Source of the DNA: an uncultured Actinomycetota bacterium
GTDB lineage: Bacteria; Actinomycetota; Geothermincolia; Geothermincolales; RBG-13-55-18
NCBI GenBank assembly: GCA_964462595.1
Contig: CAYWXM010000023.1
Location: 71,543-135,542, forward strand
Direction: 5' to 3'
Length of the DNA stretch: 64,000 bases
Shown: positions 20,763 to 62,816 of the stretch, in pieces
Layout of the letters: every line of letters begins with the position of its first letter
Numbering within the stretch: the stretch's first letter is position 1
The notes under the pieces: model-generated
The model's database searches: none
What the model was told of the DNA's origin: nothing
Seen by the model: the letters and a program-made list of their open reading frames with translations, nothing else
Position numbers and translations under genes: made by a program

Positions 20763-20960
20763 TCAGCCCTGCCGCAACATCTTTCTCACGCTGGGGACGT
20801 CGCTTTTCGCCACCTCGGCCTTGGAGCGGTAGGAGCGTTTACGGGTAGGACTCTTCTTGGAAAGAAGGTGGCTGCCGTATCCCTTCCTTCTTCGCAGTTT
20901 GCCTCCTCCGGTTATCTCAAACCTCTTGGCCGCTCCCCGGTGTGTCTTCATTTTTGGCAT
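20763..20960 (-). CDS. rpmI: 50S ribosomal protein L35
   Basis: 65-aa ORF reading [14 protein letters not shown]... Confidence 0.9.
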
Positions 20961-21492
20961 TCTTTCCTCCGTCTTTTTTAATCGCCGGCAACGGCGCCAT
21001 GATCATCTGCATGTTCCGTCCGTCGAGCTTGGGCATCGATTCCACTGTCCCTAGTTCCACCAGCTCTTCGGCCAGTTGCTGCAGAAGATTCCTTCCGAGT
21101 TCCGTGTGGCTCATCTCTCTGCCGCGAAACATTATCGTTACCTTGACCTTGAACCCGGAACTCAGGAATCGCTCTATGTGTTTTCTCTTGATCTCGTAAT
21201 CGTGCCTGTCGATCTTCGGGCGCAGTTTCATCTCCTTGTACGTAACCACGCTTTGTTTCTTGCGCGCCTCCTTCATCTTCACTGTCTGCTCATAGCGATA
21301 CTTGCCGTAATCCATGATCTTGCAGACCGGGGGTTGTGCCTGCGGTGCCACCTCGACCAGATCCAGGTCAAGCTCTTCGGCCATAGCCAGGGCTTCGTCT
21401 ATGCTTTTGATGCCTATCTGGTTGCCCTCCGGCCCTACGAGGCGCACCTCTCTCGCCCTGATCCCCTCGTTAATGCGCGCGTTCTTGTCTAT
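20917..21492 (-). CDS. infC: translation initiation factor IF-3
   Basis: It contains [24 protein letters not shown]...[15 protein letters not shown], the IF-3 sequence. The SD AAGGAGGG is followed 7 nt later by an in-frame ATA codon (21490-21492), which is the probable non-AUG start. The listed ORF begins at an upstream TTG (21513) that contains the SD. The 3' end overlaps the rpmI start. Confidence 0.85.
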
Positions 21493-21510
21493 CTGGCATC
21501 CCTCCTTAAT

Positions 21511-21545
21511 CAAAACAAAAGGATAGCGGTTTCTCCCCGCTATCC
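21511..21545 (-). terminator. intrinsic-terminator-like hairpin in the infC leader (candidate L20-responsive attenuator)
   Basis: On the coding strand: GGATAGCGG-ggagaaa-CCGCTATCC (perfect 9-bp stem) followed directly by TTTTGTTTTG and then the infC SD. Confidence 0.5.
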
Positions 21546-21674
21546 ACGGGATCCTGCTCCCAGGAACCCTGGCGGCATCGTATCCGCAGGGTGAGAAGCC
21601 GAACCGCTTCTTCTTCGCTTATATTGCGTTTTCAAGCAGAAAGTATAGTGTATCCTCCAGCTTCAGGCAACTTC

Positions 21675-23897
21675 TCATCCTGCAGCCGCCTTACCCGAGT
21701 CGCCCGTAAAGCCTGCCCGCGAATCCCTTTTAATACCGTATAGGGGAAGGGTTATGTTGAAGGTGGTGCCTCCGCCCTTGGAGCTGTTCGCCCATATCTC
21801 ACCCCCGTGGGCGTTTACCAGCTGCCTGGTGATGGAAAGCCCCAGCCCGGTGCCGCTCTGGTGCCGTGTCGAGGATGAGTCCACCTGATAGAATTTATCG
21901 AAAATCCTCGGGAGATCCTGCGCAGAGATACCGATACCGTTGTCCGATATCTTTATCAGGCAATCCGTTACGGAAGATGTCGCGCTAACCGTGACCTCTC
22001 CGTTTTCCGGGGTGAACTTGATCGCGTTGTGTATGAGGTTCATGAACACCTGGCTCAAGCGCTCGCTGTCGCCGCTGATCAGGGGCATGTCAGCCGGTAT
22101 AGCCAACCTCAGGGTGATGCCCTTCTCTTTTGTGAGGTTGTCCAACTGCTGTGCCACTCCCCCGACAACCCCCGAGAGCTTCACGGGCTCGCTTCGTACT
22201 TTTATCGTCCCCGCCTCGATCCTTGACAGATCCAGGAGATCGTTAATGAGCATGGTGAGCGATTCGGACTGCCTCAACACAACGTCCAGGTAATGCTTCT
22301 GCTTTTCATTGACCCTGCCCACCCTCTCGGCCGCGAGCAGCCTCACGAATCCCTTGATGGAAGTCAGCGGGGTCTTCAGCTCGTGGGACACGATAGATAT
22401 GAAGTCGGACTTCAAGCGGTCCAGCTCGATGAAGTCCGTGATATCGTGAAGCAGTATCACGCCCCCGCCGACTTTTCCTTCGCTGTCTTTCAGGGGAACC
22501 CATATGACGTTGAATATTATCGGTGGCTCCAGCTCCAGGACCATCTCGCTCCTCAGGCCTTCCCCTCCATGCAATACCCTTTCCAGCGCCTTGTGGCAGG
22601 ATACCTCCTTGAACTTCGTGCCACAACGCAATCGCTCAAAGATCTCGATAAGCGGCAGCTGGTAATCCTCCTGCTTCAAACCCATAAGGCGCGATATGAA
22701 CGGGTTTGCCAGTACCAGCCTTCCTCCCTCGTCGATTACCATAAGGCCGTCGGTGAGGCTGTTGATGATAGTCTCTATCTTCGTCTTGTCCTCCAGGGTC
22801 GTACGATACAGGGCGGCCTTTTCCAGTGCCATTGCAGCCTCACTCGACATGGTTAGAAGGATCCTGGCGGAGTCGTCGTCGAAAGAATCTCTTTTTTTCG
22901 AGAAACAGCTCAAGACGCCTATCACGCTCGAGCTGGCGAATAAAGGCACGGCGATCATCGAGGAATATCCTGACTCCTGCAGGTATGGACGGAAACGAGG
23001 GTCCTCTTCGATATCCTTGAGGATGACAGGAAGCACGGCCGAAGCAGACATATAAAGGGGGTTGTCCTTTTCCTGGCCCATCAGGCCGTTAATACGGTTC
23101 TCCTCCAGATTACGGTGCGCCTTAGGGTTCAAAAGCCCCTGCTGGTCGAGCAGAGCCACGGCAATGGCATCGTTTTCGACCAGCTCAGCTGCATTTTCGA
23201 TGAGTACGAAAAGCATCTCCTCTTCGTCTAGCGTAGACGCGAATTTGAGTGATGTGGCGTACAGGGTGGACATCTCCCTGCGCTTGGTGTCGGCCTGGTC
23301 GTAAAGGTTGGTCAGATCCTGCTTTTCCCTTTCCTGCTCGCGTGCCTTGTTGATCACGAAAGACCCCCCCAGCGCTATTATCATGTATATGGGGACGGCC
23401 ATGGCCATGTTCTTGAGGGTTTCGAGGGAAATGGACTCGTAAACAAGGGGCGCGAAATAGACCAGGCAGGTCACGGCGGTTATCAACATCGTCTCCAGCA
23501 GCTCGAAATAAGCGGAAGAGAATATGATCACCGCCAGGAAGAGCAGGGAAATACTGCTCTCGATACCGCCGGCCAGGTATACCATCACCGCTATCAGGAT
23601 GTCTGTCGCCAGGAGAAGGGCGAAATAGGCGATGGGATGGTAACCCTCGTAAGGGAAATAGCGGTTTCCGAGGAACACGAGAACCGACAGGGCGATGAAA
23701 ACGTAAAAAACGACAGACCTGCTGCGCTCGGAATATGGCAGGACGAAGAGCATGGTCGCTACGATAATGGTCAGCCAGAATATCGATGCTATGAAGCGTG
23801 TGGAAGACAGAAGCATGCGCACTCCCTCGCGCTGTTCGCCGCTCTCCGTCTTCGAATACTCCTGTCTTCGGGAAGAACTCGAGTTCATCTGCCTCAA
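21675..23897 (-). CDS. sensor histidine kinase with multi-pass membrane N-terminal domain, GAF, PAS, HisKA and HATPase_c
   Basis: 740-aa ORF. The N-terminus of about 190 aa is strongly hydrophobic (about 6 TM). It has the H-box SHELKTPLTSIKGF and N, G1 and G2 boxes (NLIHNAIKF, DNGIGI, GTGLGL). Confidence 0.85.
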   Translation of the reverse strand: MRQMNSSSSRRQEYSKTESGEQREGVRMLLSSTRFIASIFWLTIIVATMLFVLPYSERSRSVVFYVFIALSVLVFLGNRYFPYEGYHPIAYFALLLATDILIAVMVYLAGGIESSISLLFLAVIIFSSAYFELLETMLITAVTCLVYFAPLVYESISLETLKNMAMAVPIYMIIALGGSFVINKAREQEREKQDLTNLYDQADTKRREMSTLYATSLKFASTLDEEEMLFVLIENAAELVENDAIAVALLDQQGLLNPKAHRNLEENRINGLMGQEKDNPLYMSASAVLPVILKDIEEDPRFRPYLQESGYSSMIAVPLFASSSVIGVLSCFSKKRDSFDDDSARILLTMSSEAAMALEKAALYRTTLEDKTKIETIINSLTDGLMVIDEGGRLVLANPFISRLMGLKQEDYQLPLIEIFERLRCGTKFKEVSCHKALERVLHGGEGLRSEMVLELEPPIIFNVIWVPLKDSEGKVGGGVILLHDITDFIELDRLKSDFISIVSHELKTPLTSIKGFVRLLAAERVGRVNEKQKHYLDVVLRQSESLTMLINDLLDLSRIEAGTIKVRSEPVKLSGVVGGVAQQLDNLTKEKGITLRLAIPADMPLISGDSERLSQVFMNLIHNAIKFTPENGEVTVSATSSVTDCLIKISDNGIGISAQDLPRIFDKFYQVDSSSTRHQSGTGLGLSITRQLVNAHGGEIWANSSKGGGTTFNITLPLYGIKRDSRAGFTGDSGKAAAG

Positions 23898-23915
23898 GAC
23901 CTCGCTGTAATCCTT

Positions 23916-25022
23916 TTAATCCCTGCGCCTCCGGTCGAAAACAAGATTACTGCCTTGCATGTTCTTGGCATATTTCTTCAGTTCCGCCGCGATCTGCGCC
24001 ACCTTGCCCGGATGGTCCAAAGAGCGGTAAGTGTTATGAACTACGGCGATGCTGATGGTCATGATAGGAAAATTGTTTACCTTACCCTGCCGGTCGGTGC
24101 TGATGATATATCCCTTTTCGCGGTCATCCGGTGCGTACTGTGAAGGTATACGCGTATCGAACAACTTGATTATCTCCTGGGATATCAGGGGTGCTCGTTC
24201 CATCTCGGTGATCACGATGAAGTCGTCTCCTCCGATATGACCGACGAAATCATCCTTGACGCCGAACTTCTCCAGAGCATCCATGATAGCCTTCGTAGTC
24301 AGCTTTATGACCTCGCTCCCCGCCAGAAAGCCATAGCGGTCGTTGTAGGCCTTGAAGTCGTCTAAGTCGATGTAGCAGACGGCGAACTTCGCTCCCGTCT
24401 TTATACGCGCTTCTATGACTTCCTCAAGGGCTCGATTACCGGGAAGACCGGTTAACGGGCTTGCTTCACCGTCGCGGACAGACCGTCTGAGGTGCATGTT
24501 TATCCTGGCCTCGAGCTCCAGGGGATCAAATGGTTTGGTCATGTAATCGTCCGCACCGGTTTCCATACCCTTTATCTTGTCTTCCAGCATGCCCTTCGCT
24601 GTAAGCAGGATGATGGGGATATGGCTGGTCAAAGCCTCCCCTCGTAACCTCAGGCAGACCTCGAGGCCATCGAGATCGGGCATCATCACGTCCAGCACGA
24701 TTATATCCGGCCTATCCGTCTCGCATATCTGAAGCGCTTCCCTTCCATCTCTTGCCACTACGGGGTCGTATTTCCCGTCGCCAAGTGTCTCCAGGATAAG
24801 CTCGCGGATGTATGGATCGTCGTCCACCACGAGGATCTTGTGTCTCTTGGTCCTCTCCAGGGTTTCCGCCGTTTCACCCCTCAGTATCTCGTCGAACAAT
24901 TTTTCACCTCCGACACGGATCCCCACCTCTCCAGCGCGCACCGCTATGCATCGCAACCATGGAGTCCCCACGAAAAACATTGACGCATGGTCTCCTTCAC
25001 CTGATGACCGGATCACCCCCAT
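23916..25022 (-). CDS. response regulator with receiver domain fused to GGDEF-type diguanylate cyclase domain (GGDDF variant)
   Basis: REC (ILVVDDDP...IIVLDVMMPDLDG...TAKG) followed by a GGDEF domain (TGLPGNRALE...YIDLDDFKAYND...GHIGGDDFIV). The 5' end overlaps the upstream HD-GYP gene, so the real start is probably internal (around MFFVG or later). Confidence 0.85.
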   Translation of the reverse strand: MGVIRSSGEGDHASMFFVGTPWLRCIAVRAGEVGIRVGGEKLFDEILRGETAETLERTKRHKILVVDDDPYIRELILETLGDGKYDPVVARDGREALQICETDRPDIIVLDVMMPDLDGLEVCLRLRGEALTSHIPIILLTAKGMLEDKIKGMETGADDYMTKPFDPLELEARINMHLRRSVRDGEASPLTGLPGNRALEEVIEARIKTGAKFAVCYIDLDDFKAYNDRYGFLAGSEVIKLTTKAIMDALEKFGVKDDFVGHIGGDDFIVITEMERAPLISQEIIKLFDTRIPSQYAPDDREKGYIISTDRQGKVNNFPIMTISIAVVHNTYRSLDHPGKVAQIAAELKKYAKNMQGSNLVFDRRRRD

Positions 25023-31077: not shown

Positions 31078-31246
31078 TGAAATAATAAAGGGCACCGGGG
31101 AGAATACCCGGCGCCCAAAATGAACGCCTCAGGTCTTCTCCCATCCGGACTCTAACCGTCGGTGCCGGAATTTCGCCGGCTCTGCCTTGCGGCTCGCGGA
31201 CTTTAACCGCCGGTCGGGGATTTCACCCTGCCCCGAAGACCGTTAA
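31078..31246 (-). promoter_or_regulatory. FMN riboswitch (RFN element) with intrinsic terminator expression platform, upstream of ribD
   Basis: The reverse strand reads GGTCTTCGGGGCAGGGTGAAATCCCCGACCGGCGGTTAAAGTCCGCGAGCC...GCCGGCGAAATTCCGGCACCGACGGTTAGAGTCCGGATGGGAGAAGACC, with closing P1 GGTCTTC/GAAGACC. Then GGGCGCCGGG-tattctc-CCCGGTGCCC follows, and then CTTTATTATTTCA. Confidence 0.9.
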
Positions 31247-42104: not shown

Positions 42105-44405
42105 CTACCAGTTCTTTCTGTCCTGTCTTGGACGGTTGGGATCTCCCTTATCCCTGTCCTTGCCCTGCGGCGGGCCGGACTGGTAGCGTGGCTGCCGTGA
42201 GTCCCTGCGCCCATCGGGCCTGCGCTCGTTACGGGGCGGTCCCTCGGGAAGATCGTCCGGAATCTTGAGGTCAATTGCCCTCAAGTTTATCCTTCCCATC
42301 TTGTCGATCTCCATTACCTCAACGTTAACCTTGTCTCCGACGTTGATAACGTCTTCCACGCGTGGTATGTGGCGATCGGCCAGCTTGGATATATGTATCA
42401 GACCTTCCTTGCCCGGGAGGATCTCTACGAAAGCCCCGAAGCTGGTGGTGCGGGTGACCGTTCCCTCGTACTGTTCCCCGGCTTTAGCTTCACGTATGAT
42501 CTGCTCTACCATACGCCTGGCCCCCTGTGCGCTCGCCAGGTCTTTGGCGGTGATGAACACGCGACCGTCATCCTCTATGTCCAACTCTACGTCATGCTCG
42601 GCCATGATGCGGTGGATAACCTTGCCCCCGGGGCCGATAACCTCGCGTATCTTGTCCACCGGCACCTCGAATGTGACTACGCGCGGTGCGTAAGGCGATA
42701 GATCGCCTCTTGGCTCCTGCATGGTTTCCCTTATCTTGCGCAGTATGTAGAGGCGGGCTTCCCGGGCTTGAGCCAGGGCACGCTGCATGGTTTCAACCGT
42801 TATACCCTGTACCTTCATATCCATCTGCAGCGCGGTAATACCCGTATCGGTTCCCGCGACCTTGAAGTCCATGTCTCCGTACTTATCCTCGAAACCCTGG
42901 ATATCCGTGAGAACCGATACCTTATCCTCTTCTTTTATCAGGCCCATGGCTATTCCAGCCACTGCCTTGTTGCCTTTCAGGGGCACGCCGGCATCCATCA
43001 ACGCCAGGGTAGATGCGCACACCGAGGCCATGGAGGTTGATCCATTGGACGACAGGACCTCGGAAACAAGCCGGATCGTATACGGGAACACATCTTCGTC
43101 CGGGATGATGCTCACCAGCGCCCTCTCGGAGAGTGCCCCGTGCCCTATTTCCCTGCGGCGTGGACCTCGCAGCATGCCTGTCTCCCCCACGGAGAAGGGT
43201 GGGAAATTATAATGATGCAGGTAGCGCTTGCTCTCGTCTGGAGAGAGGTCGTCTATTTTCTGCATGTCACTGATGGGGCCCAGGGTAAGCAATGTCAGTA
43301 CCTGGGTAAGGCCCCGCTTGAACAATCCCGAGCCATGAGTGCGGGATATCAGACCTACCTCGCAGGATATGGGCCGTATCTCTTCCGGGCGCCTGCCATC
43401 AATACGCATATCCTCTTCCAGGATCATGCGGCGCATGGTTTTTCCCACCATTTTGCTGAAGTATTCCCTGGTGGCCTCGATAAATTCTCCGTTCGCCCCC
43501 TCCATCTCGGCCGCCAGGATCATCTCGGTCTGCAGATTTTCCATGCCGCGATCGCGCTCCGTCTTGTCCAGCTGGTTACGTGCCGTATCCCTCACCAGTT
43601 GCTCGACGCGGGAATCCATATCGGGAAAACGCGTGCGCACGGCGTCAAAATCGAAGTTCCTGAGGTTAACGCTTCGTTTCTCCTTCCCGACCTCCCTCAT
43701 CATCTGCTGCTGTATTTTGATTATCTCCCGGATACCCTGCTTCGAGAACTCGAGGGCATCAACCATATCTTCCTCGGGTACCTGGGATGCCCCCGCTTCC
43801 ACCATTATCACGTCTATCTCGTTTGTATCCTTGTTCAACACTCCTGCAACCACGAGGTCAAGGCTGCTTTCCTCCAGCTCTTGAAGGGTAGGATTGAGCC
43901 TTGGCCCATCCGCGAACAACCCGACCCTGACCGCCCCAACGGGTCCGTTAAAGGGAATATCGGATATGCTCAATGCCGCAGATGCGCCGTTTATGGCCAT
44001 TACGTCCGGAGGGTTTGTCTGGTCAACGGAAAGTATGGTGGCGATAACCTGTACCTCTATGCGCATTCCCTCCGGGAAAGTCGGCCTTAGGGGGCGGTCT
44101 ATGAGACGCGCGTTCAGGATGGACTTTTCGGAAGGCCTTCCTTCACGGCGAAAAAAACCGCCCGGTATCTTACCTGCCGCATACATCCTCTCCTCTACAT
44201 CAACGACCAGGGGAAAGAAATCGCGGTCCACCTCGTGCTTTGAGCCCATGGCGGTTACCAGGATATCGGTGCCGCCACAGGATACGACGACCGCTCCGTC
44301 AGCTAATCCGGCGAGTTTCCCGACCTCCAGCTCGGTTACCTTTCCGGTGATCTCCAACGAGTATTTTCTAATGTCTTCTTCGGTCATTTCTTCTCTCATC
44401 TCCAT
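42105..44405 (-). CDS. pnp: polyribonucleotide nucleotidyltransferase (PNPase), with a basic C-terminal tail
   Basis: 766-aa ORF with two RNase PH domains, KH and S1 domains, and an extra tail of about 60 aa rich in Arg/Pro/Asp. Confidence 0.95.
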   Translation of the reverse strand: MEMREEMTEEDIRKYSLEITGKVTELEVGKLAGLADGAVVVSCGGTDILVTAMGSKHEVDRDFFPLVVDVEERMYAAGKIPGGFFRREGRPSEKSILNARLIDRPLRPTFPEGMRIEVQVIATILSVDQTNPPDVMAINGASAALSISDIPFNGPVGAVRVGLFADGPRLNPTLQELEESSLDLVVAGVLNKDTNEIDVIMVEAGASQVPEEDMVDALEFSKQGIREIIKIQQQMMREVGKEKRSVNLRNFDFDAVRTRFPDMDSRVEQLVRDTARNQLDKTERDRGMENLQTEMILAAEMEGANGEFIEATREYFSKMVGKTMRRMILEEDMRIDGRRPEEIRPISCEVGLISRTHGSGLFKRGLTQVLTLLTLGPISDMQKIDDLSPDESKRYLHHYNFPPFSVGETGMLRGPRRREIGHGALSERALVSIIPDEDVFPYTIRLVSEVLSSNGSTSMASVCASTLALMDAGVPLKGNKAVAGIAMGLIKEEDKVSVLTDIQGFEDKYGDMDFKVAGTDTGITALQMDMKVQGITVETMQRALAQAREARLYILRKIRETMQEPRGDLSPYAPRVVTFEVPVDKIREVIGPGGKVIHRIMAEHDVELDIEDDGRVFITAKDLASAQGARRMVEQIIREAKAGEQYEGTVTRTTSFGAFVEILPGKEGLIHISKLADRHIPRVEDVINVGDKVNVEVMEIDKMGRINLRAIDLKIPDDLPEGPPRNERRPDGRRDSRQPRYQSGPPQGKDRDKGDPNRPRQDRKNW

Positions 44406-58498: not shown

Positions 58499-58573
58499 TG
58501 GTGGGCGCGGAGGGGATTGAACCCACGGCCTCTTCCGCGTCAAGGAAGCGCTCTCCCTCTGAGCTACGCGCCC
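58499..58573 (-). tRNA. tRNA-Val (anticodon GAC)
   Basis: The reverse strand reads GGGCGCGTAGCTCAGAGGGAGAGCGCTTCCTTGACGCGGAAGAGGCCGTGGGTTCAATCCCCTCCGCGCCCACCA. It forms a cloverleaf with a 7-bp acceptor stem, anticodon loop TTGACGC and encoded CCA. There is one U-U mismatch in the T-stem. Confidence 0.8.
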
Positions 58574-59739: not shown

Positions 59740-59813
59740 TGGAGGCGGCGACCGGATTTGAACCGGTGATCAAGGTTTTGCAGACCTTTGCCTTACCACT
59801 TGGCCACGCCGCC
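59740..59813 (-). tRNA. tRNA-Cys (anticodon GCA)
   Basis: The reverse strand reads GGCGGCGTGGCCAAGTGGTAAGGCAAAGGTCTGCAAAACCTTGATCACCGGTTCAAATCCGGTCGCCGCCTCCA, with a 3-bp D-stem and U73 discriminator typical of tRNA-Cys. CCA is encoded. Confidence 0.9.
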
Positions 59814-62740: not shown

Positions 62741-62816
62741 TGGAGCGGAAGACGGGATTCGAACCCGCGACCCTCACCTTGGCAAGGTGATGCTCTACCA
62801 ACTGAGCCACTTCCGC
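62741..62816 (-). tRNA. tRNA-Gly (anticodon GCC)
   Basis: The reverse strand reads GCGGAAGTGGCTCAGTTGGTAGAGCATCACCTTGCCAAGGTGAGGGTCGCGGGTTCGAATCCCGTCTTCCGCTCCA, a canonical cloverleaf with encoded CCA. Confidence 0.9.

Follow-up and report, generated by a model that had tools for sequence, protein, structure and literature searches.

The closest described counterpart of the element discussed here is the L20 leader of B. subtilis, which precedes the infC-rpmI-rplT operon. There, ribosomal protein L20 binds the junction of two helices, H1 and H2, a structure that resembles its binding site in the helix 40/41 region of 23S rRNA, and L20 stimulates termination (2007, PMC1865079). Two adenosines 5′ of the upper helix are conserved in L20-binding sites, and their role has been described (PMC1865079, PMC3849166). 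In L20 leaders, a non-conserved "fourth stem" precedes the terminator (PMC3849166). The distribution of the L20 leader has been given as Firmicutes and Thermotogales (PMC3766115); a few homologs in Actinobacteria were put down to possible horizontal transfer (Deiorio-Haggar et al. 2013, PMC3849166). In Mycobacterium bovis BCG, an element called Mpr8 lies upstream of infC (DiChiara et al. 2010, PMC2896511). In E. coli, L20 acts through a translational operator that precedes rpmI (Guillier et al. 2002, cited in PMC3849166). More distant parallels are the rplJL (L10) attenuator of B. subtilis (PMC4538822) and the S10 leader of E. coli with L4, where a ribosomal protein binds its own leader and premature termination increases. 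The mechanism of L20 attenuation dates from 2007, and examples in Actinobacteria were added in 2010 and 2013; nothing in that picture is overturned here.

The window, that is, the whole 64-kb stretch of DNA that was analysed, carries what appears to be a leader of the same kind. Its resemblance to the leader of B. subtilis and of the Rfam family RF00558 is as follows. It stands at the 5′ end of infC-rpmI-rplT, and contains the domain AAG-N-AGAAGC...GCUUCUC-ACC. Two helices are adjacent, and their junction is the L20 site, assigned in the window by homology. A variable stem lies between operator and terminator, the terminator is placed just before the infC Shine-Dalgarno sequence (SD), and the infC start codon is apparently not AUG. 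The differences are several. The host belongs to the Actinomycetota rather than the Bacillota, and its leader is shorter and G+C-rich: predicted start and U-tract lie ~125 nt apart, versus ~200 nt in B. subtilis. The operator is predicted to be stable alone, unlike that of the B. subtilis-type leader. The H1 loop reads GGUUCG, not the CCAUCC/ACCC of B. subtilis-type leaders, and for that reason the window is predicted to lack the B. subtilis pairing of the H1 loop and 3′ strand with the terminator 5′ arm.

The other systems stand further off. The Mpr8-type element of Mycobacterium resembles the L20 leader and stands ahead of infC in a Gram-positive organism of high G+C content, as does that of the window. 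The E. coli rpmI operator would share with the proposed window leader the effector L20, an mRNA mimic of the 23S H40/H41 junction and feedback on rpmI-rplT. Unlike the window leader, it is placed within the operon, 3′ of infC, and combines a pseudoknot with an irregular stem; its effect is repression of rpmI translation, it has no terminator, and it shows no sequence homology. A permissive Rfam search of positions 21300-21900 gave no match of the E. coli rpmI operator kind. The rplJL (L10) and S10/L4 leaders differ from the window in protein, RNA fold and operon, and offer a mechanistic analogy only.

The genes of the locus are read from the minus strand in the order response regulator, kinase, a 160-nt gap, infC, rpmI, rplT, a SpoU-type methyltransferase gene and pheS (Table 1). 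The product of rplT is L20, the presumed effector of the infC leader. infC and rpmI share 44 nt (20917-20960, minus strand), the 3′ end of the former running into the start of the latter, and the same overlap is present in 7 of the 12 relatives introduced below (L161-L165, L167, L169), which suggests translational coupling of the two genes. The GGDEF response regulator and GAF/PAS kinase genes (21675-25022, minus strand) lie directly 5′ of infC; there is no obvious functional reason for the kinase-infC order, which is kept in 10 of the 12 relatives. Elsewhere on the minus strand of the window there are an FMN riboswitch (RF00050) at 31129-31244, with 115 bits against a gathering score of 66.2, and three tRNA genes, at 58502-58573, 59743-59813 and 62744-62816, scoring 65-74 bits with the Rfam tRNA model.

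Table 1. Genes and leader features of the infC locus, listed in the direction of transcription.
Feature	Coordinates	Strand	Basis
GGDEF-domain response regulator gene	25022-23916	-	ORFs and Pfam
GAF/PAS histidine kinase gene	23897-21675	-	ORFs and Pfam; stop codon 21677-21675
Promoter-like site: TTGCCT (21670-21665), 17-nt spacer, TATACT (21647-21642)	21642-21670	-	Consensus scan
AAG 5′ of helix 1	21613-21615	-	Invariant in alignments A1, A2 and A3
Operator helix 1 (H1): AGAAGC (21611-21606)/GCUUCU (21599-21594), loop GGUUCG	21594-21611	-	RF00558 consensus, covariation, folding
Junction C (21593) and helix 2 (H2): ACCCUGCGG with CCG-C-CAGGGU, one C bulged	21566-21593	-	Covariation, folding, R1
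Variable linker hairpin (P3), predicted: UCCUG GGAG CAGGA, purine-rich	21552-21565	-	Minimum-free-energy folds
Conserved CCCGU directly 5′ of the terminator	21546-21550	-	Nascent-RNA pair probabilities, RNAalifold
Intrinsic terminator	21511-21545	-	Sequence, terminator scan, folding, conservation in relatives
Terminator 5′ arm GGATAGCGG	21545-21537	-	
Terminator loop GGAGAAA	21536-21530	-	
Terminator 3′ arm CCGCTATCC	21529-21521	-	
U-tract TTTTGTTTTG (= UUUUGUUUUG), directly 3′ of the stem	21520-21511	-	
infC ribosome-binding site: AAGGAGG (21507-21501) and probable ATA start (21492-21490)	21490-21507	-	Sequence, ORFs, relatives
infC	21492-20917	-	ORF; Pfam IF3_N/IF3_C
rpmI	20960-20763	-	ORF; Pfam Ribosomal_L35p
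rplT	20704-20318	-	ORF; Pfam Ribosomal_L20

We consider the terminator hairpin first. In the terminator consensus scan, its stem has nine perfect pairs, of which six are G-C, closed by a 7-nt loop, and folding assigns the hairpin by itself -15.8 kcal/mol. A loose consensus scan of an 8-kb region gave nine terminator-like sites versus 6.6 expected, about the chance rate. A stricter scan of both strands of the whole 64 kb was done for this reason, in which a match needed eight or more Watson-Crick pairs around a 3-8-nt loop, with seven or more T in the next 10 nt. The infC-leader hairpin was the sole match in the window, and 20 shuffled windows gave 0. Canonical intrinsic terminators seem to be rare in the 64-kb segment, and the hairpin is real and unusual for it. 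Only 3 nt separate the U-tract from the infC SD, so that no promoter fits 3′ of the terminator and, therefore, every infC-bound transcript crosses it. When the scan was relaxed to 7 bp and at least 6 T in 10 nt, just two further T-tailed hairpins turned up in the 64 kb, at 42264 (plus strand) and 52741 (minus strand).

What precedes the hairpin is a candidate L20 operator. At the gathering threshold, Rfam reports no family in the infC leader region. In the permissive search of 21300-21900, the sole meaningful match is RF00558 (L20_leader), which aligns to 21621-21509 over model positions 1-127; against all 4227 families, E is 0.0023. At 27.8 bits, the match does not reach the gathering score of 58.7, and the alignment is full-length, taking in the terminator. 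The window is identical to the RF00558 consensus at AAG-AGAAGC, GCUUCUC, CCU and CAGG. H1, formed by the "conserved domain" of ~25 nt at the 5′ end of the L20 leader, agrees with it at all upper-case positions. The gathering threshold has no biological meaning in itself, being a working cut-off that was tuned on low-G+C Firmicutes; among the Firmicutes loci recovered with the same IF3 query, RF00558 scores run from 42.9 to 61.6 bits, and some of these too are below the gathering score (42.9-58.2).

A second line of evidence is R1, a covariance model of the operator constructed from 23 sequences that carry the operator pattern described below for Firmicutes and Actinomycetota loci, with the window and its closest relative, L001, left out. 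In the R1 alignment, 94% of the cells are standard pairs, versus 33-48% when the partners are slid, and across the 23 species both-sided changes are seen in 11 of the 15 pairs. For H1, 98% of the cells are paired and both-sided changes occur in five of six pairs; for H2, the figures are 92% and six of nine, and the basal ACC/GGU pairs of H2 are invariant in 23/23 sequences. When the 64-kb window is searched with R1, there is a single match, at 21621-21563 on the minus strand, with 26.6 bits and E = 7.9e-7. Because R1 was built without the window and matches only the infC leader, the homology of the window operator to the L20 operator, to judge from the sequence, is independent of the Rfam threshold.

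Within the AAG upstream of H1 are the two conserved adenosines that L20 sites have on the 5′ side of the upper helix. H1 alone is assigned -7.4 kcal/mol by folding; H2, spanning 21592-21566, directly adjoins it and is assigned -13.6 kcal/mol. Across the junction, from 21615 to 21590, the window reads AAG-A-AGAAGC-GGUUCG-GCUUCU-C-ACC, and these columns are invariant in alignments A1 and A2. The E. coli 23S rRNA reads GAAGAGGGAAACAACCCAGACCGCC at about nt 969-999, a segment that we take to be H40/H41, the numbering and helix assignment being our own reading of the sequence; the organism's own 23S rRNA lies outside the window. Compared by eye, it has the layout AAG-N-(hairpin)-x-ACC-(helix), as in the window operator, where the corresponding string is GAAGA-AGAAGC..GCUUCU-C-ACC-CUGCGG. 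An R1 search of the E. coli 23S rRNA gave no match, which is expected because the two strands of H41 lie ~150 nt apart.

The leader has its own promoter-like site, from which transcription is predicted to start at about 21637-21633. The distance from TATACT to the operator is constant in 14/14 relatives, and most of them have a -35-like hexamer 17 nt 5′ of TATACT; the spacer sequence is variable. At the other end, infC probably starts at the non-canonical codon ATA. This codon is in frame with infC, 8 nt 3′ of the SD, and is invariant in 14/14 relatives despite a variable SD-to-start spacer; an NCBI-annotated 191-aa IF3 begins at the equivalent ATA. Two other codons are less likely as the infC start. 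An in-frame upstream TTG falls inside the U-tract, and a nearby ATG (within GGAGGGATG, 21499-21497) stands in another frame and follows the SD by only 1 nt. This ATG is itself kept in 13 of the 14 leaders; L167 has GTG.

The relatives were obtained in two ways. An IF3 protein query gave 160 loci from genome and metagenome collections; in these scans of contigs, no relative besides L001 (92%) exceeded 66% identity. In the protein database, the search brought up IF3 proteins of 73-92% identity, several of them named Candidatus Solincola, a member of Candidatus Geothermincolia in the Actinomycetota. The contigs of 12 IF3 relatives (76-92% identity; L161-L172) were then fetched via an exact-protein look-up. 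All 12 and L001 share the leader, namely TATACT, operator, variable linker, CCCGU, GGAUAGCGG...CCGCUAUCC with U-tract, GGAGGGAUG and ATA. RF00558 is the only Rfam match, at the same position, in 12/12 newly fetched relatives (25.9-39.4 bits), and likewise the sole Rfam match there in L001, L005, L078 and L081. R1 gives 18.9-32.9 bits in the Solincola-like relatives. Stem and U-tract of the terminator are kept in 14/14 related leaders; in the stem, L167 has C-G in place of a U-A pair, a compensatory change, and two leaders (L162, L164) have U-G wobbles.

Outside this lineage, the pattern AAG-N-(hairpin)-CACC-(helix)-GGU is found upstream of infC in Firmicutes and in nearly all Mycobacteriales loci fetched, as well as in an Acidimicrobiia MAG (L078) and in two loci whose IF3 is closest to Actinomycetota (L005, L081). 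In most Actinomycetota and Firmicutes loci, R1 has a match upstream of infC; in proteobacterial loci, the 400 nt before infC contain no R1 match at E<0.01. By these sequence criteria, the operator is near-universal among the sampled Actinomycetota loci, though RF00558 misses them.

Nearly all fetched Mycobacteriales loci contain, according to R1, this same domain, here AAGUGGAG..CUCCCACC together with H2, and in most of them a stem and U-tract follow. Most R1 scores in this group are 33-68 bits, and L018 has 20.3; RF00558 was not detected at E<=10 in the four Mycobacteriales scanned (L009, L010, L018, L020). The mycobacterial operator (L008-L058, L093-L108) reads AAGUGGAGUCCCACUCCCACC plus H2 and lies ~240 nt upstream of infC. 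Next come the conserved boxes GGUCCGGUC ... GAUCGGUCGGC and, at a distance of 100-150 nt from infC, the stem GGGCCCUGC..GCAGGGCUUUU and its U-tract. The leaders of the window and of mycobacteria therefore differ in build. The latter have a length of ~240 nt, the extra boxes and a distant terminator, whereas the window leader is compact and Firmicutes-like, its terminator abutting the SD; in H1, mycobacterial leaders have GGAG/CUCC where the window has AGAAGC/GCUUCU. A further, operator-like variant, AAGCGGACAUUGUUCCCACU, occurs upstream of infC in L003 (1434-1453), L083, L086 and L088, which are other Actinomycetota contigs. In these loci, no terminator-like hairpin was found between the motif and infC, and R1 gives no score; control there may be translational.

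Attenuation in the B. subtilis manner also calls up the question of an antiterminator. The nascent transcript was mimicked by folding the leaders with the terminator 3′ arm unavailable. The comparison set was 12 other compact leaders, i.e., nine with RF00558 scores of 42.9-61.6 bits, four of them known as Bacillota, together with L005, L078 and L081. The canonical antiterminator, in which the H1 loop and 3′ strand pair with the terminator 5′ arm while H2 is still folded, was predicted in 12/12; in their pre-terminator minimum-free-energy folds, the operator takes up 6-11 bases of the terminator arm. In the minimum-free-energy folds of the window and L001, 0 arm bases are paired to the operator. 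A sequence-only reading of this DNA had expected folding to bring out a mutually exclusive antiterminator; the canonical pairing is not what folding gives for the window sequence, nor was it found there by arm-shuffle duplexes, by native versus non-native pairing or by transcript-prefix folding. The window duplex compared with shuffled arms gave p = 0.11 for the 5′ arm plus loop and p = 0.02 when the 3′ arm was included. The duplex of the window operator with its own arm has -14.1 kcal/mol, and 5 of 13 other-species terminators did as well or better. Family-wide, an operator forms a stronger duplex with its native arm than with arms of other leaders (permutation p = 0.005). The predicted formation probability of H1 in nascent RNA, with no protein, is 0.94 in the window, 0.10-1.0 in the window's lineage and ~0 in Firmicutes-type leaders. 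With the stability of H1 taken at face value, the predicted default state of the window leader is termination.

Other structures may oppose the terminator. In a transcript ending before the 3′ arm, CCCGU (21550-21546) and GCGGG (21540-21536) form a local hairpin with a pair probability of 0.91-0.94. GCGGG is the 3′ half of the terminator 5′ arm plus the first loop base, and the hairpin is predicted to be a local competitor of the terminator. It is present in the RNAalifold consensus of 14 truncated leaders, where its sequence is conserved and shows no covariation. A composite alternative adds a pairing of UCUC in the H1 3′ strand (21596-21593) with GAGA in the terminator loop (21535-21532), which encloses H2, the linker hairpin and the local CCCGU:GCGGG hairpin. 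This fold lies 2.4-3.0 kcal/mol above the operator-closed fold. When the 3′ arm begins to emerge, the UCUC:GAGA helix can extend with GCGGUU (21607-21602):AACCGC (21531-21526), and this is the minimum-free-energy structure of the 110-nt prefix. No covariation was found for the composite alternative, its bases being invariant or merely purine-rich. By-eye reading of the alignment finds a GRGR complementary to UCUC in the terminator loop, or where the loop joins the 5′ arm, in 11 of 14 leaders, the exceptions being L001, L162 and L170; these tetramers fit the composite alternative and prove nothing. The composite structure of CCCGU:GCGGG plus UCUC:GAGA is our best candidate, from folding, for what opposes the terminator.

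A relay model was also tried, in which the H1 3′ strand pairs with the purine-rich linker and so frees CCCGU. The P3 linker could indeed pair alternatively with the H1 3′ strand (GCUUCUC:GGGAGC), with weak statistics: the mean duplex has -5.6 kcal/mol versus -3.8 kcal/mol for shuffled linkers, and GCUUCUC ranks 4th of 140 permuted heptamers. Pairing of linker and CCCGU is not conserved among the relatives in the alignment. The evidence was too weak, and the model was rejected. To summarize the folding results, the lineage keeps the L20 operator and the terminator, and appears to be without the textbook antiterminator. It may use a three-way junction, with the terminator loop held by the H1 3′ strand and the 5′ arm held by CCCGU; alternatively, its leader may terminate by default.

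As our main proposal, we take the hairpin to be the terminator of an L20-type leader through which infC-rpmI-rplT transcription is attenuated; we put the probability of this at about 80%. The sequence-only reading had already seen a perfect 9-bp stem with a 7-nt loop and a U-tract, followed by the infC SD, and coordinates and sequence are as it described them. It had taken the hairpin for the terminator arm of an L20-type infC leader switch, an identification supported by infC-rpmI-rplT downstream and by the RF00558 and R1 matches upstream. The comparative alignment of infC leaders that it suggested shows promoter, operator, terminator and ATA kept in 14 relatives.

The proposed sequence of events is as follows. 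Transcription would begin at the dedicated promoter, at about 21635, just past the kinase stop codon. The first ~70 nt would fold as adjacent H1 and H2, their junction, AAG ... C-ACC ... GGU, being laid out like the L20 site of 23S H40/H41. Free L20, when in excess of the available 23S rRNA, would bind and lock H1/H2. With H1/H2 locked, the terminator would form, and RNA polymerase would halt at 21515-21511, 5′ of the infC ribosome-binding site. When L20 is scarce, part of the operator would be free for other pairings, terminator folding would be delayed, and read-through would follow. For the window leader, both L20 binding and L20-stimulated termination are inferred by analogy with B. subtilis (PMC1865079).

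The rival that survives best is a regulatory leader that does not follow the B. subtilis model. Its control would be mainly translational, through L20 or another factor or through IF3 discriminating against the ATA, or else a default-on terminator would be relieved by some other antitermination input. We regard this as improbable. The absence of a predicted canonical antiterminator and the stability of H1 without protein speak for it, as does the invariant non-canonical ATA start; in E. coli, autoregulation of infC by IF3 through an unusual start codon is established. In addition, RNAalifold of 14 leaders pairs CCC (21550-21548) with GGG (21502-21500) of GGAGGG around the terminator, and this pairing with the SD region could add a layer of translational control. 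However, the CCC:GGG pairing amounts to 3 bp, invariant and with no covariation signal, and translational layers could add to attenuation rather than replace it. A strong stem with a U-tract is, moreover, typical of control at the level of transcription, and in that form it is conserved. The operator, for its part, is the L20-binding domain of a system that acts on transcription (PMC1865079).

A still less likely explanation, indeed a quite improbable one, is that the hairpin is a plain constitutive terminator, or insulator, of the upstream kinase gene, and that its place before infC is incidental. The kinase gene ends 130 nt upstream on the same strand, the kinase-infC order is found in 10 of the 12 relatives, and folding predicts terminator formation by default. 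The earlier statement that no gene ends here must be amended accordingly, since the kinase stop codon is so near; its other half, that this is not a simple end-of-operon terminator, agrees with the relatives, which place the hairpin in the infC leader. From the kinase stop codon to the hairpin, the DNA is occupied by a conserved promoter and operator. In two relatives, the gene upstream is another one, a divergent plsY-like gene in L167 and a gene for a B12-binding protein in L170, and both retain promoter, operator and terminator. Because the leader is kept beside other upstream genes, the hairpin is part of the infC leader rather than of the kinase gene. There is also no room for a promoter before the SD, and a fully efficient constitutive stop would silence three essential genes. 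Finally, homologous Firmicutes leaders carry the same terminator within the family model. A plain kinase-gene terminator was rejected on conservation and context. As to a chance inverted repeat without function, which the chance-level yield of the loose scan might suggest, it is scarcely credible and is refuted by conservation, the hairpin being kept with one compensatory change in 14/14 relatives, lying within the full-length RF00558 alignment and standing as the only strict match in 64 kb.

For the organism, the leader accounts for the 160-nt "empty" gap before infC, gives a place to the probable infC promoter and to a presumably regulated stop site, and puts the probable infC start at an ATA codon. 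For the family, entire lineages of Actinomycetota in which the operator is clearly present escape the RF00558 threshold. The presence of the operator in most Actinomycetota infC leaders argues for vertical inheritance over horizontal transfer. We offer a broader suggestion only tentatively, and consider it somewhat unlikely as it stands: the Geothermincolia-like lineage may have lost the canonical antiterminator and may use another switch, and the L20 leader may have been vertically inherited across Bacillati, rather than being a Firmicutes invention that was transferred. An operator-terminator pair that appears to do without the textbook antiterminator, in at least one lineage, would be a natural test of what L20-dependent attenuation needs.
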